Source of the DNA: Streptomyces sp.
GTDB lineage: Bacteria; Actinomycetota; Actinomycetes; Streptomycetales; Streptomycetaceae
NCBI RefSeq assembly: GCF_035644915.1
Contig: NZ_DASQNP010000006.1
Location: 996-64,995, forward strand
Direction: 5' to 3'
Length of the DNA: 64,000 bases
A program made the translations under genes and the position numbers. Below, piece by piece: positions 31,937-54,939 of this stretch (the first letter of the stretch is position 1; each line of letters begins with the position of its first letter). The notes below the pieces were generated by a model that did not search any database, had not been told where the DNA came from, and saw nothing but the letters and a program-made list of their open reading frames with translations.

Positions 31937-31949
31937 GGTCCGGCGGCTT

Positions 31950-31997
31950 CCGCGCCGCGCGTCCGGCGGCCGTCCGGGCGGCGGACGCGCGGTGCGG
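31950..31997 (+). terminator. Hairpin downstream of LLM gene
   Basis: CCGCGCCGCGCGTCCG / CGGACGCGCGGTGCGG (one G-U pair). Confidence 0.6.
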
Positions 31998-32298
31998 AGG
32001 CGCGCGGTGCCCGCCGTCCCGGAACCGCCCGGAGCCGTCCGTGGAGCGCCCCGCGCGGATGCCCTGCCCGCGAACACTTATGGGCACGGAGTGTGCAGGC
32101 CAGGGCGTTTCCGGCGACAGGAAGCATCCCGAGTCGTCTTTACCGGACTCTTCCCGTCATATGAGTCCATTCCCTTCTCATGTCGCACCAGGTGCTCATA
32201 GTCTCGTGTGACCCCTGAGCCGGCCCCGCCCCACCGCGTGTTCTCAGGGCATCCCCCCTCCGCCGCATTCAGCCACGCATTCAGCCAGGGGAAGCACC

Positions 32299-33486
32299 GT
32301 GAGCGCCGACGCATCCATCGATCACCACAACACGTTCAGCAACAGCAGCAGCCAGGTGGAGCGCACCATCCTCTTCGCCGACCTCACCGGCTCCACCGAG
32401 ATGAAGCACCGGATGGGCTACCTCGCCTGGCTCCCCATCCTCGGCAGCTTCCTGGACATCACGACGGAGGCCGTCACCGGGCACGGCGGCACCATCGTCA
32501 AGTACCTCGGCGACGGCGCCCTCGCGGTGTTCGAGGAGGACCACGCCCACCAGGCGATATGCGCGGCGATCGAGATCCAGGAGAGCCTGCGCAACAACGA
32601 CCGGCGGGCCGCCCTCGGCGAGACGCGGGCCACCATCGGCATCGCCACCGGGAAGGTCATCGAGTACCCGGCCCCGGGCGGCGGAGGGGCCATGGACTAC
32701 GTGGGGTCCGCCGTCGACCTCGCGGCCCGCTTCAGCAGCGACGCCTCCCCCAGCGCCATCTGGATCGACACGGACACCTACGGAGCGGCCAACCACCACA
32801 AGGTCAGTTCCATCATCGGCCGGGCGAACCACAGGAAGGCCGCGGACTACTTCTCCCGCGAGGAGCAGGCACCGGCCAAGGGGTTCCCCAGCGGCGTGCC
32901 CTACCGGGAGGTCGTCTGGGACCAGAACCCCTTCGGGGTGAAGGGCGCCGCGGTGACCGAGACGATCAGGAAGATGGAGGCGGCGCGGCCACCGTCCCCC
33001 CGCCCCCAGCCGCCGGCCCCGCAGTCCGAACCCCTGGAGGGCACCGTGAACCGGTGGTTCGGCGACTCCACCAAGGGCTTCATCTCGACCGTCGGCCACG
33101 GCGACTACTACGTGGACGCGCGCTTCGTCGTCGGCGGGCAGAGCCTCACCGAGGGAGCCGCGGTCCGGTTCGTCCCCCAGCCGCCCGTGACCCCCGACCC
33201 CGACGCGAAGCCGGTCGCCGGGTGCACGGTCCAGGAGGGGCACAGGTTCCGGGGCACCTTCAACAACGTGCTCGCCAGCGGGTTCGGCTTCGCCGACGTC
33301 CGCGACCAGCGCGGCAACCAGCAGAGCCTGTTCGTGTACCTCGGCGGGAACGCGGCGGGCCACCGCATCGGGGACGTCGTCCACCTGGAGGCCGTGCGCA
33401 ACCGCAAGGGGCTGTCCGCCCGCGTGGTGGACGCCCCGGCCGACGAGCACCCGGACGAGGGCGCGGTGGATGGCCGGCACCCCTGA
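32299..33486 (+). CDS. Class III nucleotidyl cyclase (PycC-like) with two C-terminal cold-shock domains
   Basis: ILFADLTGST (D28), IVKYLGDG (K68, D72), IGIATG, MDYVGSAVDLAAR; CSD-like GTVNRWFGDSTKGFI...LTEGAAVRF and SGFGF...LFVY...GDVVHL. Confidence 0.85.
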   Translation: MSADASIDHHNTFSNSSSQVERTILFADLTGSTEMKHRMGYLAWLPILGSFLDITTEAVTGHGGTIVKYLGDGALAVFEEDHAHQAICAAIEIQESLRNNDRRAALGETRATIGIATGKVIEYPAPGGGGAMDYVGSAVDLAARFSSDASPSAIWIDTDTYGAANHHKVSSIIGRANHRKAADYFSREEQAPAKGFPSGVPYREVVWDQNPFGVKGAAVTETIRKMEAARPPSPRPQPPAPQSEPLEGTVNRWFGDSTKGFISTVGHGDYYVDARFVVGGQSLTEGAAVRFVPQPPVTPDPDAKPVAGCTVQEGHRFRGTFNNVLASGFGFADVRDQRGNQQSLFVYLGGNAAGHRIGDVVHLEAVRNRKGLSARVVDAPADEHPDEGAVDGRHP

Positions 33487-33991
33487 CACCGCCCCCGACA
33501 CCGCCGCCGACACCCGTGCCATCGACTCCGCGCTCGCCGAGGTCCGTGCCGAACTGGTGCGGGCCGACCAGAAGGCGGCCACGCTCCTCGCCCTGTTCTC
33601 GGCGATGGCGGCCGGCATCCTGACGCTGTTCGTCGTCCGCCGGGGAGGGCTCTTCTCCCTGTGGAACGGCGTGGAGTGGCTCGCCTGGGCGGGCACGGCC
33701 GCCCTGGCGGGCAGCCTGGCGCAGTTGCTGTTCTGCGTCAGGCCGCAGGGCAGCGGCCGGCCCACCGGCCGCTCCTACTTCGCCTTCTACGCGCTCCACG
33801 CGGACCACCCCGACCGGCTCATCGCCCACCTGCGGTCCGTGAGCGCCGCGAACGGGGAACGGTGCGTCCACCTGGTGGCGCTGTCCGTCCTGGCGAGGAG
33901 GAAGTACCGGATGATCGCGCGGGCCGTCGACCTGCTCGGCTGCTCGCTGCTCCTGATCGCGGGGGCGATGCTCGTCTCCGCCCTGCGCTGA
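33470..33991 (+). CDS. pycTM: Pycsar-type membrane effector (DUF5706/PycTM-like)
   Basis: RADQKAATLL + TM + TM-VRP + SYFAF + LARRKYRMI + TM; 17-nt overlap with the cyclase. Confidence 0.8.
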   Translation: MAGTPDTAPDTAADTRAIDSALAEVRAELVRADQKAATLLALFSAMAAGILTLFVVRRGGLFSLWNGVEWLAWAGTAALAGSLAQLLFCVRPQGSGRPTGRSYFAFYALHADHPDRLIAHLRSVSAANGERCVHLVALSVLARRKYRMIARAVDLLGCSLLLIAGAMLVSALR

Positions 33992-34106
33992 GGGAGGCCG
34001 GCGGGGCGGGTGCCGTACGGCGTCCGCCCCGCGCGGCCGGCGGTCCTCCGGTCTCCGGTCTCCGGGCGACCTGGTCCGGACCGCCCGGCGGTGACGGTCC
34101 GGGTGA

Positions 34107-38820: not shown

Positions 38821-39909
38821 TCACCGCCGCGGCTCCCGTACGTCGGCGACCACGCAACTGACGTTGTCGGGACCGCCGGAGCGGTTGGCCAGGGCGACGA
38901 GTTCGCGCACCGCGTGCTCGGGGTCGCCGGCCTCCGCGACCACCCGGCGCACCTCGTCCTCGGGGACGACCGCGGACAGGCCGTCGGAGCAGAGCAGGTA
39001 GCGGTCCCCGGGCCGGGCATCGTGCAGCCGCAGGTCGGGGGAGTGCTCGGGGCCGCCGGTCAGGGCCCGTGCCAGCAGGGTGCGCTGGGGGTGGGAGACC
39101 GCCTCCTCGGGGCTGATGCGCCCTTCGTCGACCATCTCCTGGACCAGGGTGTGGTCGTGGGTGATCCGGAAGAACCCGCCGTCGCGCAGGAGGTAGGCGC
39201 GCGAGTCGCCGATGTGGACCAGCGCCAGCCGTGACCCGGCCCGGACCATCGCGGTGAGCGTCGTGCCCGTCTCCCGCGGCGCGGGAGCGGCCCCGGCGAC
39301 GTCGCGCACGGCCCGGCGGGCCCGCTCGACGGCGTCCTCCAGGACGTCGAGGAGGTCGCCCACCGGAACGCCGTCGGCGTCCAGGGACTTCAGCGCGTCG
39401 ATGGCCGCCGCGCCGGCGCGGGCGCCGCCGCTGCCGAAGCCGTCGGCCACGGCGAGCAGGCGGTCCCCGGCGTGGACGGCGTCCTGGTTGCCGTCACGGA
39501 CCAGGCCGGTGTCGGAGAGGGCGGCGTAACGGATGGTCAGGGGTGTGCTGTCGGGCTCGGTCGGGGACACGGCGGGTTCCTTCCGGGACAGGTGGTCGAC
39601 GAGGAAGGCGGCCAGGTCCCGCCGGGCGGCGGTGTCGGCCTCGACCCGGGCCCAGTACGCGCGGACCTCCCGGGCCGCCTCGGGCGCCGGGAGGTCGCAC
39701 ACCTGGCGGATGCGGGCCAGCGGCATGCCGAGCCGCCGGAGCCAGGCCACCAGCCGGGCGCGTTCCACCTGCTCGGGGGCGTAGTAGCGGTAGCCGGTCA
39801 CCGGATCGACGCGGGCGGGGGCCAACAGCCCGAGTTCGTCGTACAGCCGCAGCGCCTTCCGCGACAGCCGCGACGCCCTCGCGAAGGCTCCGATGGTCAG
39901 CAGTCCCAT
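38821..39909 (-). CDS. MerR HTH fused to PP2C phosphatase
   Basis: LTIGAFAR...LRLYDELGLL...YRYY; RDGNQD, VADGFG, GTTLTA, HIGDSRAY, CSDGL, GGPDNVS. Confidence 0.9.
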   Translation of the reverse strand: MGLLTIGAFARASRLSRKALRLYDELGLLAPARVDPVTGYRYYAPEQVERARLVAWLRRLGMPLARIRQVCDLPAPEAAREVRAYWARVEADTAARRDLAAFLVDHLSRKEPAVSPTEPDSTPLTIRYAALSDTGLVRDGNQDAVHAGDRLLAVADGFGSGGARAGAAAIDALKSLDADGVPVGDLLDVLEDAVERARRAVRDVAGAAPAPRETGTTLTAMVRAGSRLALVHIGDSRAYLLRDGGFFRITHDHTLVQEMVDEGRISPEEAVSHPQRTLLARALTGGPEHSPDLRLHDARPGDRYLLCSDGLSAVVPEDEVRRVVAEAGDPEHAVRELVALANRSGGPDNVSCVVADVREPRR

Positions 39910-39951
39910 GCCCGTCCCTCCTCGTGCCGGGCGCCTCGCCCGGCCCCACCG

Positions 39952-39982
39952 ATGCTGGGGCTTGCCCCGGGGTGAGGGTCAA
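39952..39982 (-). promoter_or_regulatory. MerR-type promoter with 19-bp spacer
   Basis: Minus strand TTGACC-ctcaccccggggcaagccc(19)-CAGCAT with dyad centred on CCCCGGGG. Confidence 0.7.
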
Positions 39983-48750: not shown

Positions 48751-48884
48751 CTGCCTAATTTCGGCCTCGGGGAACGCGCGTCCGGTCGCCGGCGGACGCG
48801 GGCGGCTCCACATGCTGATTGACGACCCGGACACCTCATCGCTTGCCGACCCCACCGGCGGGCCCCAGGAAGGAACTGAACGAA

Positions 48885-50012
48885 GTGAAGCTTCAGCCCA
48901 CCCACCGGCTTCGAGCGATCGCTGTCGGCGCTGTCGCGGTCTCCAGCGCCCTGGTCCTGACCGCCTGCGGTTCGGACGACAACACCGGGGGCACCAACGA
49001 GGGCGGCAGCTCCAAGGCCGCGAGCAACATCAAGTGCGAGGGCGAGGGCAACCTGCTCGCCTCCGGCTCCAGCGCCCAGAAGAACGCGATGGACATCTGG
49101 GTCAGGAACTACCAGGCGGCCTGCGAGGGCGTCGGGATCAACTACAAGCCCACCGGCTCCGGCGCGGGCATCCAGGAGTTCCTGCAGGGCAAGACCGGCT
49201 TCGCGGGCTCCGACTCGGCCCTCAAGGAGGACGAGGTCGAGCAGTCCAAGAAGGTCTGCAAGGACGGCCAGGGCATCAACCTGCCGATGGTCGGCGGCCC
49301 GGTGGCCGTGGGCTACAACCTGTCCGGCGTGGACGACCTGGTCCTGGACGCCGAGACCCTCGCCAAGATCTTCGACTCGAAGATCACCAAGTGGAACGAC
49401 CCGGCGATCAAGAAGCTGAACCCGGACGCCGACCTGCCGTCCACCAAGATCCAGGCCTTCCACCGCTCCGACGAGTCCGGCACCACCGACAACTTCACCG
49501 AGTACCTGCACGCCGCCGCCCCCGACGTCTGGAAGTACGAGCCCTCCAAGGCGTGGGCCGGCAAGGGCGGCCAGTCGGCCGACGGCTCCTCCGGCGTGGC
49601 CACCAACGTCAAGAACAACGACGGCGCCATCGGCTACTTCGAGCTGTCGTACGCCACCGGCAACAACATCCCGACCGTGGACCTGGACACCGGCGCCGGC
49701 GAGCCGGTCGAGGCCACCGTCGAGAACGCCACCAAGGCCATCGCCGCGGGCAAGGTCGTCGGCGAAGGCAGCGACCTGGCCATGGAGCTGGACTACACCA
49801 CCAAGGCCGAGGGCGCCTACCCGATCGTCCTGGTGACCTACGAGATCGTCTGCGACAAGGGCAACAACAAGGAGACCCTGGACCTGACCAAGTCCTTCCT
49901 GGCCTACACGGCCAGCGAGGACGGCCAGAAGGCGCTCGCCGAGCAGGGCTACGCCCCGATCCCCGACGAGATCATCGCCAAGGTCCGCACCACCATCGAC
50001 TCCCTCTCCTGA
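48885..50012 (+). CDS. pstS: Phosphate-binding lipoprotein
   Basis: LTACG lipobox, SGSSAQ, GSGAG, FAGSD, HRSDESGTT; GTG 48885. Confidence 0.96.
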   Translation: MKLQPTHRLRAIAVGAVAVSSALVLTACGSDDNTGGTNEGGSSKAASNIKCEGEGNLLASGSSAQKNAMDIWVRNYQAACEGVGINYKPTGSGAGIQEFLQGKTGFAGSDSALKEDEVEQSKKVCKDGQGINLPMVGGPVAVGYNLSGVDDLVLDAETLAKIFDSKITKWNDPAIKKLNPDADLPSTKIQAFHRSDESGTTDNFTEYLHAAAPDVWKYEPSKAWAGKGGQSADGSSGVATNVKNNDGAIGYFELSYATGNNIPTVDLDTGAGEPVEATVENATKAIAAGKVVGEGSDLAMELDYTTKAEGAYPIVLVTYEIVCDKGNNKETLDLTKSFLAYTASEDGQKALAEQGYAPIPDEIIAKVRTTIDSLS

Positions 50013-50015
50013 CGC

Positions 50016-50057
50016 CCGGGCGGCCGGCCCCGCCCCGGCGCGGGGCCGGCCGCCCGG
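50016..50057 (+). terminator. Intercistronic hairpin pstS-pstC
   Basis: Perfect 18-bp stem, 6-nt loop. Confidence 0.7.
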
Positions 50058-50150
50058 TCACGTCCGCCACCCAGTCCCCCTCCGCACGCGATCGACCCAT
50101 CCGGTGCACCGCCGCCAGGGGATGACACCCCTCATCAGACCGGAGACACC

Positions 50151-51131
50151 ATGGACATAGCACCCACCGCTTCCGCCGCCCCACCACAACCACCCCCGCG
50201 CGGCTCGGCCAACCGGCCGGGCGACCGCGTCTTCCTCGGCCTCTCCAAGGGCTCCGGCATCACCCTGCTGGTGATCATGGCCGCCATCGCGGTCTTCCTC
50301 ACCTGGCGGGCCGTGATCGCCCTCGCCGAGAACGAGGGCAACTTCTTCACCACCTTCGAGTGGAACGCCAACGCCAACCCGCCGGTCTTCGGCATCGCCG
50401 TCCTGGCCTTCGGCACGGTCGTCAGCTCGATCATCGCCATGGTGCTGGCGGTCCCCGTGGCCGTCGGCATCGCCCTGTTCATCTCGCACTACGCGCCGCG
50501 CAGACTCGCCACCCCGCTGGCGTACGTCGTCGACCTGCTCGCCGCGGTCCCCAGCATCGTCTACGGCCTGTGGGGCGCCCTGTTCCTGGTGCCGCACCTG
50601 ACCGGCCTGTACCAGTGGTTCGACGACTACCTCGGCTGGACGGGCGTCCTCTCCTACGAGGGCGGCGCCGCGCGCTCGCTGTTCACCGTGGGCATCCTGC
50701 TGGCGATCATGATCCTGCCGATCGTCACCAACGTCAGCCGCGAGGTCTTCAAGCAGTCCCCCAAGATGCAGGAGGAGGCCGCGCTCGCGCTCGGCGCCAC
50801 CCGGTGGGAGGTCATCAAGATGGCCGTCCTGCCGTTCGGCCGTTCCGGCGTGATCAGCGCCTCGATGCTCGGCCTGGGCCGCGCCCTCGGCGAGACGATG
50901 GCGGTGGCCACCGTCCTGTCCCCGAGCCCCGAGATCAACCTCAGTCTGCTCGATCCGGGCGGCGGCACCTTCGCGCAGAACATCGCCGCGGGCTTCAAGG
51001 AGGCCGGCGACCTCGGACGCGACGCCCTGATCGCCTCCGGCCTGGTGCTGTTCGTCATCACCCTGCTGGTGAACGGCGCCGCCCGCATGATCATTGCCCG
51101 CCGCAAGGAGTACTCGGGGGCGAACGCCTGA
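50151..51131 (+). CDS. pstC: Phosphate ABC permease
   Basis: DLLAAVPSIVYGLWG, EAALALGATRWE, LGRALGETMAV. Confidence 0.96.
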   Translation: MDIAPTASAAPPQPPPRGSANRPGDRVFLGLSKGSGITLLVIMAAIAVFLTWRAVIALAENEGNFFTTFEWNANANPPVFGIAVLAFGTVVSSIIAMVLAVPVAVGIALFISHYAPRRLATPLAYVVDLLAAVPSIVYGLWGALFLVPHLTGLYQWFDDYLGWTGVLSYEGGAARSLFTVGILLAIMILPIVTNVSREVFKQSPKMQEEAALALGATRWEVIKMAVLPFGRSGVISASMLGLGRALGETMAVATVLSPSPEINLSLLDPGGGTFAQNIAAGFKEAGDLGRDALIASGLVLFVITLLVNGAARMIIARRKEYSGANA

Positions 51132-52207
51132 TGAGCAACGCAGTCATGGACAAGCCCCCGGTCGTCGCACCGCTCCCCGGCGGCGCGCTCAAGCAGCCCC
51201 GCCTCCCGCGCTGGGCCCCCGCCGCCCTGGCGCTGGCCTCGGCGGGCATCGGCGCCGGCGTCGGCCTGGCGGCCGGGCTGGCCAGCCGCGTCCAGTGGGG
51301 CCTGATCGCCGCGGTCCTCTACGTCGTGGCGACCTACGTCCTCACCACGGCCGTGGAGGGCAAGCGCCAGGCCAAGGACCGGCTCGCCACCAGCCTGGTC
51401 TGGGTCAGCTTCCTGATCGCCGTGGTCCCGCTCGTCTCCCTGATCTGGGAGACGATCGCCCGCGGCGTGAAGGTGCTGGACGGGTACTTCCTCACCCACT
51501 CCATGAACGGCGTGATCACCCTCCAGCCCGGCGGAGGCATCTACCACGCGATCATCGGCACCGTGGAGCAGGTGGGTCTCGCCACGCTGATGGCGGCGCC
51601 CATCGGCCTGCTGACCGCGATCTACCTCGTCGAGTACGGGACCGGCAGACTCGCCAAGGCCGTCACCTTCTTCGTCGACGTCATGACCGGCGTCCCCTCG
51701 ATCGTCGCCGGCCTGTTCGTCCTGTCCTTCTGGATCATCATCCTGGACTTCGGCTACTCCGGCTTCGCCGGTGCCATGGCGCTGGCCATCCTGATGATGC
51801 CGATCGTCGTGCGCTCCACCGAGGAGATGCTCAAGCTCGTCCCGAACGAGCTGCGCGAGGCGTCCCTGGCGCTGGGCGTGCCGAAGTGGCGCACCATCCT
51901 CAAGGTGGTGCTGCCCACCGCGATCGGCGGCATCACCACGGGCGTGATGCTGGCCGTCGCCCGCATCGCCGGGGAGACCGCGCCGATCCTGCTGCTGGTG
52001 TTCGGCACGCAGCAGATCAACAACAACCCCTTCGACGGCGCCCAGTCGTCCCTGCCGTACTACGTCTACGAGCAGTGGGCCAACGGCAACGAGGCCTCCT
52101 ACGACCGCGCCTGGGCGGCGGCCCTCGTCCTGATCGCCTTCGTGATGATCCTCAATCTGGTGGCCCGCGGCATAGCCCGCTGGAAGGCCCCGAAGACCGG
52201 CCGCTGA
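51131..52207 (+). CDS. pstA: Phosphate ABC permease
   Basis: GVPSIVAGLF, EASLALGVPKWRTI, ARIAGETAP. Confidence 0.95.
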   Translation: MSNAVMDKPPVVAPLPGGALKQPRLPRWAPAALALASAGIGAGVGLAAGLASRVQWGLIAAVLYVVATYVLTTAVEGKRQAKDRLATSLVWVSFLIAVVPLVSLIWETIARGVKVLDGYFLTHSMNGVITLQPGGGIYHAIIGTVEQVGLATLMAAPIGLLTAIYLVEYGTGRLAKAVTFFVDVMTGVPSIVAGLFVLSFWIIILDFGYSGFAGAMALAILMMPIVVRSTEEMLKLVPNELREASLALGVPKWRTILKVVLPTAIGGITTGVMLAVARIAGETAPILLLVFGTQQINNNPFDGAQSSLPYYVYEQWANGNEASYDRAWAAALVLIAFVMILNLVARGIARWKAPKTGR

Positions 52208-52240
52208 CCCGGCCCACGCAGCAGAAGAGAAGTGATTCCC

Positions 52241-53017
52241 ATGGCCAAGCGCATCGACGTCAGCGGCCTCACCGCCTACTACGGCTCCCACAAGGCCATC
52301 GAGGACATCTCGATGGCCATCGAGCCCCGCTCCGTGACCGCCTTCATCGGCCCGTCCGGCTGCGGCAAGTCCACCTTCCTGCGCACCCTCAACCGCATGC
52401 ACGAGGTCACCCCCGGCGGGCGCGTCGAGGGCAAGGTGATGCTCGACCACGAGGACCTGTACGCGAGCGGGGTCGACCCGGTCTCCGTGCGCCGCACCAT
52501 CGGCATGGTCTTCCAGCGGCCGAACCCGTTCCCGACCATGTCGATCTACGACAACGTGGCGGCGGGCCTGCGGCTCAACGGCTCCCACAAGAAGTCCGAG
52601 CTGGACGACATCGTCGAGAAGTCCCTGCGGGGCGCCAACCTCTGGAACGAGGTCAAGGACCGCCTGAACAAGCCCGGTTCCGGCCTCTCCGGCGGCCAGC
52701 AGCAGCGGCTGTGCATCGCCCGCGCCATCGCGGTCGAGCCGCAGGTGCTGCTGATGGACGAGCCGTGCTCGGCGCTCGACCCGATCTCCACCCTCGCCAT
52801 CGAGGACCTGATCTGCGAGCTGAAGGAGCGCTTCACGATCGTCATCGTCACCCACAACATGCAGCAGGCCGCGCGCGTCTCGGACCGCACCGCGTTCTTC
52901 AACCTGTCCGCGGTCGGCCAGCCCGGCAGGCTGGTGGAGATCGACGACACCGAGCGCATCTTCTCCAACCCCTCGGTGCAGGCCACCGAGGACTACATCT
53001 CGGGCCGCTTCGGCTGA
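52241..53017 (+). CDS. pstB: Phosphate ABC ATPase
   Basis: [38 protein letters not shown]. Confidence 0.97.
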
Positions 53018-53159
53018 TCCGCTCCGGGTGGGTCCGACCGGCCCGTCCCGGCCGTCTGCGGTGCTGCATGGCGGTGCCACCGCACGACGAACCGCCCGCC
53101 CCCCGGCTCCCGGGGGGCGGGCGTCCACGGCCCGGTGCGCCGCGCGACGCGACGCACCG

Positions 53160-54155
53160 TCAGCCCGCGACCAGCCTCACGGCCCAGTAGCTCGCCGCGG
53201 CCACCGCCGCGGCGGCGGGCATGGTGATGAACCAGCCCAGGACGATGTTCTTGGCGACGCCCCACCGCACCGCGCTCACCCGCTTCGTGGCGCCCACGCC
53301 CATGATCGCGGACGTGATCACGTGCGTGGTCGAGATCGGCGCGTGGAACATGAACGACGCCGTGTACATCACCGACGCCGCCGTCGTCTCGGCGGCGAAG
53401 CCCTGCGGCGGGTCCAGTTCGATGATCCGGCGCCCCAGCGTCCGCATGATCCGCCAGCCGCCGGCGTACGTGCCCAGCGACAGCATCAGCGCGCAGGAGA
53501 CCTTGACCCAGGTCGGGATCTGGCCGTGGTCCTGGACGTCCGCGATCACCAGGGCCATCACCACGATGCCCATCGTCTTCTGCGCGTCCTGCAGGCCGTG
53601 CCCGAGCGCCATCCCCGCCGCCGACACCGTCTGGGCTATGCGGAAGCCGCGCTTGGCCTTGTGCGGGTTGGCCCGGCGGAAGAGCCACAGGATGACCACC
53701 ATCACCAGGTAGCCGAGCAGCAGCCCGACCACCGGCGAGACGAACATCGGGATGACGATCTTCTCGAGCACGCCCGACCAGTACACCGTGATGCCGCCCG
53801 CCAGCGCCGCGCCCACCATGCCGCCGAAGAGGGCGTGCGAGGAGGAGGACGGCAGGCCGAAGTACCAGGTGATCAGGTTCCAGACGATCGCGCCGACCAG
53901 CGCCGCGAACAGGATCGCCATGCCGCTCCGGCCGTGCGGGGTCTCGATCAGCCCCTCGCTGACCGTCTTGGCCACACCGCTGCCCAGGAAGGCGCCGGCC
54001 ATGTTCATCACCGCGGCCATCAGCAGCGCCACCCGGGGGGTGAGCGCGCGCGTGGACACGGACGTGGCGATGGCGTTCGCGGAGTCGTGGAAACCGTTGG
54101 TGTACGTGAAGAAGAGCGCGACCCCCACGGTCACGACGAGAGCGAAGGTGTCCAC
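53160..54155 (-). CDS. pit: Pit-family inorganic phosphate transporter
   Basis: NGFHDSANAIAT, HGLQDAQK, PISTTH. Confidence 0.95.
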   Translation of the reverse strand: MDTFALVVTVGVALFFTYTNGFHDSANAIATSVSTRALTPRVALLMAAVMNMAGAFLGSGVAKTVSEGLIETPHGRSGMAILFAALVGAIVWNLITWYFGLPSSSSHALFGGMVGAALAGGITVYWSGVLEKIVIPMFVSPVVGLLLGYLVMVVILWLFRRANPHKAKRGFRIAQTVSAAGMALGHGLQDAQKTMGIVVMALVIADVQDHGQIPTWVKVSCALMLSLGTYAGGWRIMRTLGRRIIELDPPQGFAAETTAASVMYTASFMFHAPISTTHVITSAIMGVGATKRVSAVRWGVAKNIVLGWFITMPAAAAVAAASYWAVRLVAG

Positions 54156-54160
54156 GTGGT

Positions 54161-54781
54161 TCAGGACTCCTTGACGGCGATGGTCTCCACCGTGTTCGCC
54201 ACGTGCTCGAAGGCGTCGGCCGCCTCCTCCAGAACGTCCACGATCTGCTTGAGCTTGAGCACCTCGATGGCGTCGTACTTGCCGTTGAACAGGTGGGCCA
54301 GCAGCTTGCGGTGGATCTGGTCGGCCTGGTTCTCCAGCCTGTTGACCTCGATCCAGTACTCGGTGAGGTTGTCCATCGTCCGCAGGTGCGGCATCGCCTC
54401 GGCGGTCAGCTCGGCAGCCCGCGCCAGGACCTCGATCTGCTGCTCCACTCCCTTGGGCAACTCCTCGATCTGGTAGAGGACGACCAGGTCGACGGCCTCC
54501 TCCATGAAGTCCATGATGTCGTCGAGCGACGACGCGAGCCGGTAGATGTCCTCGCGGTCGAACGGCGTGATGAACGAGGAGTTCAGCTGGTGGAAGATCG
54601 CGTGGGTGGCGTCGTCACCGGCGTGCTCGGCCGCACGCATGCGCTCCGAGATCTCGGCCCGTGCCGACGTTTCCGCCCCGAGCAGTTCCATCAGGAGCTT
54701 CGAACCGGTGACGATGTTGTCCGCGGACGCGGCGAACATGTCGTAGAAGCTCGTCTCCCTGGGGGTCAGACGAAAGCGCAC
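54161..54781 (-). CDS. DUF47 / PhoU-like Pit accessory protein
   Basis: EHAGD, FITPFDREDI, LENQAD, ADAFE. Confidence 0.92.
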   Translation of the reverse strand: MRFRLTPRETSFYDMFAASADNIVTGSKLLMELLGAETSARAEISERMRAAEHAGDDATHAIFHQLNSSFITPFDREDIYRLASSLDDIMDFMEEAVDLVVLYQIEELPKGVEQQIEVLARAAELTAEAMPHLRTMDNLTEYWIEVNRLENQADQIHRKLLAHLFNGKYDAIEVLKLKQIVDVLEEAADAFEHVANTVETIAVKES

Positions 54782-54939
54782 TGGGATTCCTCGGGGTGCA
54801 TCGTTGTCGGTCTCAATGATGCTAGGTGCATCATCCGGTCACAGTGAACCGTCGGTCATCAGTGTTACCCATCGGAGCGCACCACTCCGCATCGGGGATC
54901 CCCCATCACACCACCCCGGAACGGAACATTCGGTACGAT

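Follow-up and report, generated by a model that had tools for sequence, protein, structure and literature searches.

A class III cyclase with tandem cold-shock-like domains and a PycTM-family membrane effector: a probable anti-phage cassette in Streptomyces

The 64,000-nt stretch of Streptomyces sp. DNA analysed here (contig NZ_DASQNP010000006.1, positions 996 to 64,995; hereafter the window, meaning the whole stretch) carries a cassette of two overlapping genes, the first encoding a class III nucleotidyl cyclase with two C-terminal barrels homologous to cold-shock domains (CSDs), the second a small membrane protein of the PycTM family. Since a cyclase bearing two CSD-like barrels is paired here with a Pycsar membrane effector, the cassette is probably an uncharacterised anti-phage variant. 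That the two genes form a defence module operating through a cyclic nucleoside monophosphate (cNMP) and PycTM can be considered likely; for the more specific proposal, abortive infection by a Pycsar-type pair whose tandem barrels serve as a nucleic-acid infection sensor that switches on the cyclase, the case is about evenly balanced.

The two genes and the membrane effector

The cassette lies near the middle of the window and is composed of the following elements:

32299..33486, forward strand: gene 1, class III nucleotidyl cyclase with tandem cold-shock-like domains, 395 amino acids, GTG start
32353..32913, forward strand: cyclase catalytic domain, residues 19-205 (Pfam, AlphaFold2 fold, Foldseek)
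32947..33033, forward strand: Pro-rich, variable, disordered linker, residues 217-245 (predicted local distance difference test score, pLDDT, below 50 at residues 217-239)
33034..33234, forward strand: CSD-like barrel 1, residues 246-312 (structure model, hhalign, sub-threshold Pfam match)
33244..33426, forward strand: CSD-like barrel 2, residues 316-376 (structure model, hhalign)
33470..33991, forward strand: gene 2, PycTM-family membrane effector, 173 amino acids, ATG start, 17-nt overlap with gene 1

Both genes of the original prediction, which had been made from the letters of the sequence and a list of open reading frames (ORFs), are present as ORFs at these positions, and so is their 17-nt overlap. 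The third-position GC content (GC3) of gene 1 is 0.95, as in genuine genes, in a window of approximately 75% GC, and the N-terminus of its product lines up with the N-termini of the homologues. Chance ORFs or mis-called genes were ruled out by this GC3 value together with the 29 full-length cyclase homologues and the 26 PycTM homologues.

The product of gene 2 matches the Pfam family PycTM (PF18967) at 47 bits, against a cut-off of 27.2, and is also matched by the PADLOC PycTM models. It contains three hydrophobic segments, at residues 38-56, 72-90, and 152-170, in agreement with the 173-residue PycTM protein with three transmembrane segments that had been predicted. PF18967 is present in all 26 homologues, most of which bear the RefSeq name 'Pycsar system effector family protein'. 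The name given by JGI to two homologues of the cyclase includes 'cold shock CspA family protein'; both parts of the cassette have thus already been labelled by automated annotation, the effector by RefSeq and the cyclase by JGI.

The cyclase domain

The cyclase core, predicted earlier at about residues 22-215, is borne out by two lines of evidence. Pfam Guanylate_cyc is matched over residues 22-165 (31.5 bits against a cut-off of 21.9), and in the full-length AlphaFold2 model, built with 27 family sequences (mean pLDDT 86), residues 19-205 adopt a fold for which Foldseek returns class III cyclases, CyaC, Cya2, and Ma1120 among them, at E-values of about 1e-13. F26, D28, K68, D72, D133, D140, and R144 do not vary within the close family of 27 sequences, and the catalytic residues are still found in 37-38 members of a deeply divergent set of 40; the enzyme therefore looks catalytically competent. 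D28 and D72, which had been put forward as targets for mutation, occupy the metal-ligand positions.

The sequence of the cyclase does not by itself justify the label of PycC, which is owed to the operon context. The best match of the gene 1 product to a PADLOC PycC model has an E-value of 2.7e-19, but in a control CHASE2/HAMP signalling cyclases, as well as cyclases accompanied by neither CSDs nor PycTM, reached 1e-13 to 1e-27 on the same models. The PADLOC PycC models fail to separate PycC from generic class III cyclases, and the match was accordingly dropped as proof of PycC identity; the Pycsar assignment rests instead on the effector and on the operon. Moreover, the closest solved relatives are canonical adenylyl cyclases, Ma1120 being matched at 5.6e-12 as against 8.5e-6 for BcPycC, the sole PycC detected. 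An N-terminal alpha-helix is a hallmark of PycC structures (PMC11224242); in the AlphaFold2 model of the gene 1 product the helix preceding the first strand comprises at most 6 residues (9-14).

These relationships bear on the identity of the second messenger. In the alignment with the adenylyl cyclase Ma1120, the invariant K68 and D133 fall on its Lys/Asp specificity pair, by which enzymes of this type select adenine. Because this adenine-type pair is invariant, a pyrimidine product cannot be taken as given, and the gene 1 product may not make a pyrimidine cNMP. The characterised PycCs differ from it around the second metal-binding Asp, with D94/R97 in BcPycC, R142/Q144 in EaPycC, and K104/F109 in AnPycC (PMC11224242). 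A purine messenger (cAMP or cGMP) in place of cCMP or cUMP, which would keep a Pycsar-like logic and would be compatible with every other reading of the cassette, is further favoured by the failure of the PycC models to discriminate; on the whole it nevertheless appears rather unlikely. In Streptomyces cAMP is a physiological signal, and for this reason a suicide effector triggered by cAMP would carry a risk of autoimmunity. The product of gene 2 is homologous to PycTM, and the specificity of PycCs varies by clade and is poorly predictable from sequence. Furthermore, the position of the canonical transition-state Asn is occupied by Asp (D140, codon 32716-32718), in the close family without exception and in 38 of the 40 diverse members; this active site is not that of a textbook adenylyl cyclase.

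The tandem cold-shock-like module

The catalytic domain is followed by the Pro-rich linker, foreseen in the original prediction and found to be disordered at residues 217-239; its length and sequence vary among the homologues. The C-terminal 140 residues, modelled alone with AlphaFold2, form two five-stranded barrels with high confidence (pLDDT 94.4, predicted TM-score, pTM, 0.87). The two oligonucleotide/oligosaccharide-binding (OB) or cold-shock repeats that had been read at 33034-33180 and 33244-33430 coincide with these barrels (residues 246-312 and 316-376), and structure prediction, the check that had been suggested for the region, thus yields the expected pair of OB/CSD-like folds. That the C-terminus might be a low-complexity linker was ruled out by its conservation and its confident fold.

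Both barrels are homologues of cold-shock domains by fold and by profile, as four independent tests agree. Among the best multi-domain Foldseek matches of the C-terminal model are CSD789 of Unr (E-value 1.3e-5), CSD1-2 of RNase II, and S1 repeats; the double-OB domain of the Mpa/ARC proteasomal ATPases is also matched, at about 3e-4. The single cold-shock proteins CspA and CspB superpose on one barrel with a TM-score of about 0.8, an rmsd of about 2.6 Å, and 25-30% identity, and hhalign aligns each barrel with CspA/CspB at about 92% probability (P about 7e-7). The family profile matches the sequences of CspB, CspA, and CspD at 4e-4 to 1e-2, and among the matches of the C-terminal profile in 1.8 billion representatives are true multi-CSD proteins, with E-values down to 1e-29, which themselves score 1e-38 to 1e-69 with Pfam CSD.

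The aromatic platform with which Csps contact nucleic acid is largely in place. In barrel 1 the equivalents of CspA W11, F20, and F31 are W253, F261, and Y271. Barrel 2 contains RNP1-like [KR]G[FY]xF and RNP2-like LFV[YFH]L motifs; it keeps the equivalents of F18, F20, and F31 and has Tyr, Phe, or His at the H33 position, the equivalent of W11 being lost; its platform aromatics are F329, F331, and F345. In the 40 deeply divergent members the platform of barrel 1 is conserved as W in 36, F in 33, and Y/F in 39 sequences, and that of barrel 2 as F/Y in 36, F/W in 39, and F/Y in 34. From this domain homology it is reasonable to infer that the module may sense single-stranded nucleic acid; that the barrels do so directly is plausible at slightly less than even weight.

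The best-conserved part of the C-terminal half is the segment between the barrels, residues 305-315 (PVAGCTVQEGH, 33211-33243), in which P305, A307, and G308 are invariant and C309, Q312, E313, and G314 nearly so; it does not correspond to a canonical Csp motif.

Linkage and mobility of the cassette

In a scan of close loci, taking one genome per species, 12 loci were obtained (L001-L012); in each of the 11 that contain the C-terminal module, a PycTM homologue follows directly downstream. A further complete cassette, L035, is located on a mobilisable Streptomyces megaplasmid of 1.04 Mb, so that every one of 12 actinomycete loci with a cyclase and both barrels (L001-L011 and L035) carries PycTM directly downstream. 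Many of the cyclase and PycTM matches lie on contigs of equal size, and one pair has consecutive locus tags. The linkage that was to be checked according to the original prediction, that of homologous cyclases with PycTM, therefore holds throughout the close actinomycete loci; as described below, it does not extend to the distant proteins of the same architecture.

Homologues of the genes flanking the cassette in the window were not found in the related loci, which have just the two genes in common, save for partial synteny between L004 and L007. The distribution of the cassette among related genomes is patchy, and decayed copies occur. In L010 (4935-5924) the cyclase lacks its first 107 residues, including both metal-binding Asp residues, while the CSDs and PycTM are kept; in L012 (4974-5420) there is a cyclase remnant corresponding to residues of about 22-158, followed by a stop, and the CSDs and PycTM are gone. 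No homologue was found in the phage genomes searched, and a search for RNA-seq runs containing the locus gave none. The linkage in 12 of 12 loci, the plasmid copy, the truncated copy, and the unrelated flanks together identify the cyclase-PycTM pair as a self-contained, mobile accessory cassette.

The wider family and reuse of the module

The profile of the tandem module, scanned against 1.8 billion cluster representatives, matches 589 of them at E-values of 1e-3 or lower. Of the best 150 of the 589, about 60 have both a class III cyclase and the complete tandem module; another 60 or so are proteins of repeated CSDs, and in roughly a dozen a different N-terminal domain is followed by the complete module. 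The contigs of the distant members are mostly too short to show gene context.

Of the proteins with another N-terminus, 6 of the 10 tested match the PADLOC TIR effector model at 2.5e-9 to 4e-5; these are P0155, P0060, P0083, P0100, P0141, and P0163, of about 300-340 amino acids. Weak matches to Pfam Nuc_deoxyrib_tr were obtained for P0060, P0155, and P0086, and P0155 resembles structures of the Rcl/DNPH1 N-glycosidases. Judged by their domain composition, the DNPH1/TIR-like proteins with tandem CSDs look like single-protein fusions of a sensor and an enzyme. Two loci encoding a TIR/DNPH1-like N-terminus with tandem CSDs, L027 (1006-1920) and L028 (688-1602), lie on short contigs and have GNAT and ABM genes as neighbours.

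The distant genes encoding a cyclase with tandem CSDs are not followed by PycTM. One of them adjoins a peptidase M24 gene and GntR. Another, in L026 (4001-5359), encodes a protein of 452 amino acids (P0055) with a degenerate cyclase in which metal-binding motifs are not evident and with about 94 extra C-terminal residues; it adjoins KwaA/KwaB (Kiwa) and a restriction-modification methylase, and its start is overlapped by a 77-codon gene for a protein with a single transmembrane segment. In L029 the cyclase-CSD gene (P0112) is followed by a co-directional gene (1736-2518), cut by the contig end, whose P-loop NTPase-like product contains APAGYGKSKL as its Walker A motif and is a possible alternative partner. 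Intact cyclase and tandem-CSD genes whose products are about 30% identical to the window protein are present in L033 (3929-5155), an 18-kb plasmid of Mycolicibacterium crocinum, and in L034 (3929-5158), the plasmid pJCM30620_2 of Mycobacteroides abscessus. In barrel 1 of both proteins the RNP1 motif has the canonical form KGFGFV; in both plasmids a DUF6290 gene precedes the cyclase-CSD gene, no PycTM was found within 4 kb, and in L034 one gene of the Abi family and one of TIGR02391 are located nearby.

Cyclases with tandem CSDs thus constitute a deep and diverse family. Given the distant genes that lack PycTM, the pairing with PycTM is a trait of the actinomycete subfamily and not of the whole architecture. 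The description of the architecture as a Pycsar operon consequently stands as far as the cyclase, the tandem CSD-like barrels, PycTM, and their conserved linkage are concerned, with the reservation that the fusion itself is not unique to Pycsar. The occurrence of the module on a second immune-type class of enzymes suggests a general sensor building block. Tentatively, the tandem module could be a portable sensor of phage single-stranded nucleic acid that switches on the immune enzyme to which it is fused, a cyclase in the window and a DNPH1/TIR-like hydrolase elsewhere. If this were true, the cassette would be the first of the Pycsar type in which the trigger domain can be identified and is defined by its ligand, with activation through dimerisation of the cyclase on a nucleic-acid template.

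Proposed mechanism and alternative readings

In the scheme that we propose, infection would lead to a build-up of single-stranded nucleic acid, be it phage transcripts, single-stranded DNA (ssDNA) intermediates of replication or packaging, or products of RNA decay, and the aromatic platforms of both barrels would capture such a strand. The flexible Pro-rich linker would tether the cyclase to a rigid pair of barrels. Several cyclase molecules loaded on one strand would be brought together, or an inhibitory contact would be relieved, and cNMP synthesis would be turned on; either event could activate the enzyme because the active sites of class III cyclases are built by two molecules in a head-to-tail dimer. 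The cNMP would then switch on the co-translated PycTM effector, and the resulting membrane damage would stop the infected cell. The analysis establishes the domain composition, the intact catalytic residues, the CSD homology with its conserved platforms, the linkage, the mobility and decay of the cassette, and the reuse of the module; the defence function, the ligand, the mode of activation, and the nucleotide are inferred.

Several observations weigh against this scheme. How the domains are placed relative to each other is uncertain in the full-length model (pTM 0.58). Pfam CSD (PF00313) is matched by barrel 1 at 17.1 bits, below the cut-off of 27, and barrel 2 is not matched by it. In barrel 1 the position of CspA F18 is taken by Lys or Arg and that of H33 by D273, an Asp invariant in the close family, and the net charge of the barrels is near neutral; with these substitutions and this charge the ligand could be something other than a nucleic acid. 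In characterised Pycsar the escape mutations lie in the T5 capsid protein and not in nucleic-acid functions, and PycC from E. coli shows auto-activity in vitro. No defence island was found around the cassette in the window, where the neighbouring genes are metabolic or regulatory (a sulfotransferase, a luciferase-like monooxygenase, a LysR regulator, a GNAT acetyltransferase, and an amine oxidase). The large neighbours of the cassette in other genomes gave generic helicase or ATPase matches, and convincing defence genes were not found among them. To these points may be added the distant cyclase-CSD genes that are not linked to PycTM.

Part of this evidence is shared by a reading in which the cassette is of the Pycsar type and serves in defence, and the OB/CSD pair binds a protein of the phage or of the host or a small ligand, or acts in autoinhibition or oligomerisation. 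OB folds are versatile, and the similarity of the C-terminal model to the double-OB domain of Mpa/ARC, which functions in oligomerisation and substrate recognition, fits such a role, as do the substituted F18 and H33 positions of barrel 1, the capsid escape mutations, and the fact that conservation in the C-terminal half peaks between the barrels, from P305 to G314 with the near-invariant Cys309, rather than in a nucleic-acid motif of the Csp type. We regard this reading as improbable, given that the sequence-level homology is specific to cold-shock domains and not to the OB domains of Mpa, that the solvent-exposed aromatics of the Csp platform are retained across deep divergence, and that a fully canonical RNP1 motif is found in some members of the family.

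Another reading dispenses with defence altogether: the pair would belong to a physiological stress pathway that reads the status of RNA or ssDNA, for instance in the cold or under translation stress, and passes it on as a cNMP signal by which a membrane protein is gated. The housekeeping and metabolic neighbours in the window, where mobile-element or defence genes are not adjacent, would accord with this, and so would the proximity of the cyclase domain to ordinary signalling adenylyl cyclases, with their Lys/Asp pair, and the distant proteins without PycTM that are encoded beside such genes as peptidase M24 and GntR. Against it, the effector scores above the curated Pfam threshold for the PycTM family, and the patchy spread, the unrelated neighbourhoods, the plasmid copy, and the decayed remnants fit accessory or defence genes better than core physiology. 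Other members of the family adjoin Kiwa and a restriction-modification methylase or lie near an Abi gene on plasmids, and the module is also fused to a DNPH1/TIR-like class of enzymes typical of conflict systems. A stress pathway is, in view of this, the least probable of the alternatives considered here.

Comparison with known systems

The Pycsar defence pair with a nucleic-acid sensor, as proposed for the window, can be set beside several systems already described. The trigger by which infection activates Pycsar is still open, and conformation or oligomerisation may regulate PycC (PMC11224242). The escape mutations point to capsid proteins, yet expression of the capsid alone leaves Pycsar inactive. 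The Pycsar-PycTM systems of E. coli and Anabaena (Tal et al. 2021, summarised in PMC11224242) are likewise two-gene operons, in which a class III cyclase is joined by a small multi-transmembrane PF18967 effector; they likewise have the intact pair of metal-binding Asp residues, and the expected logic is the same, leading from a cNMP through membrane disruption to abortive infection. The window cyclase differs from them in the C-terminal tandem CSD-like module of about 150 residues, for which there is no description in clades A-E or in clade F, proposed recently, in the adenylyl-cyclase-like Lys/Asp pair, in the shortness of the N-terminal hallmark helix in the model, and in its actinomycete host. 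In view of the invariant Lys/Asp pair one may ask which cNMP an actinomycete Pycsar would use.

Accessory domains of PycC are known: the Ig-like AGS-C and the zinc ribbon of clade D, which track the clade or are needed for activity. As in those enzymes, an extra domain is attached to the cyclase, the AGS-C and zinc-ribbon domains being clade-specific and thought to control activity or phage specificity; the domain of the window protein, however, has the OB/CSD fold and is neither Ig-like nor a zinc ribbon. In contrast to AGS-C and the zinc ribbon, the CSD has a well-known class of ligand and hence points to a concrete trigger. The detection of infection by Pycsar cyclases has been a question since the description of the system, and with a PycC-type enzyme hard-wired to a domain whose ligand class is well understood it could be reduced to simple experiments.

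CBASS includes CD-NTases that are activated by phage RNA, as by cabRNA in Staphylococcus. The idea of a messenger synthase switched on by infection-derived nucleic acid, proposed here for the window cassette, is shared with them; in CBASS, however, the synthase is a Pol-beta-like nucleotidyltransferase that takes RNA on the enzyme surface and makes cyclic oligonucleotides, whereas in the window a class III cyclase carries a dedicated CSD module. Cold-shock-like domains are also encountered in other anti-phage systems. PADLOC includes a model named 'CSD_V', which we take to be the cold-shock protein of type V retrons, and in the CoCoNuT defence systems, which are of the McrBC type, CSD-like folds are predicted to bind RNA (PMC11090510). 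Binding of RNA or ssDNA is predicted for the cold-shock-like domains of both CoCoNuT and retrons, as for those of the window, but their partners are a GTPase/nuclease or a reverse transcriptase, and coupling of a CSD to a cNMP is present in neither. Compared with CspA/CspB and Unr, the window barrels have the same five-stranded OB fold with RNP1/RNP2-like aromatics, in a tandem as in Unr; they are divergent, sub-threshold for Pfam CSD, and fused to an enzyme rather than free-standing, with Asp at the His33 position of barrel 1 and no equivalent of Trp11 in barrel 2.

No paper on a CSD-fused Pycsar cyclase was found in a full-text literature search, and no report of a characterised Pycsar system in Streptomyces or other actinomycetes was found in the literature; the two claims of novelty in the original prediction, that no PycC with a CSD fusion and no Pycsar of Streptomyces had been characterised, agree with this outcome. 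The cassette would give a first access to the biology of Pycsar in Streptomyces.

Operon borders and other features of the window

The borders of the cassette are marked by the following features:

32002..32298, forward strand: operon leader, intergenic; GC 0.67 in 32000-32499, below the rest; GGGGAAG before the GTG
34001..34032, forward strand: GC-rich hairpin with 16-nt arms, 88% complementary, 10 nt 3' of the PycTM stop, lacking a T tract

The purine-rich GGGGAAG occupies positions 32288-32294, directly 5' of the GTG start of gene 1. A consensus scan found no sigma-70 promoter in the leader and called no T-tract terminator around the operon; the absence of such consensus signals is usual in high-GC actinomycetes. 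The hairpin at 34001-34032 is probably the terminator of the operon. A second hairpin, at 31946-32001, is located immediately 3' of the stop of the upstream gene, and the two hairpins delimit what is predicted to be an independent transcription unit.

No insertion signature was detected around the cassette beyond a weak direct repeat. The two 28-nt copies of this repeat, 79% identical, at 32031-32058 and 34009-34036, bracket the cassette almost exactly; the second copy overlaps the terminator-like hairpin, and the similarity may be due to chance in DNA of 75% GC.

Two other regions of the window are also worth mentioning. The reverse-strand gene at 38821-39978 joins a MerR helix-turn-helix domain to a PP2C phosphatase; PADLOC models match it weakly (mad1 at 8e-9, PDC-M21C at 7e-7), and it has no evident link to the cassette. 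In the region 48819-54838 several high-GC3 ORFs have a first-position GC content of 0.47-0.67, below that of the rest of the window, and this segment may be compositionally distinct.

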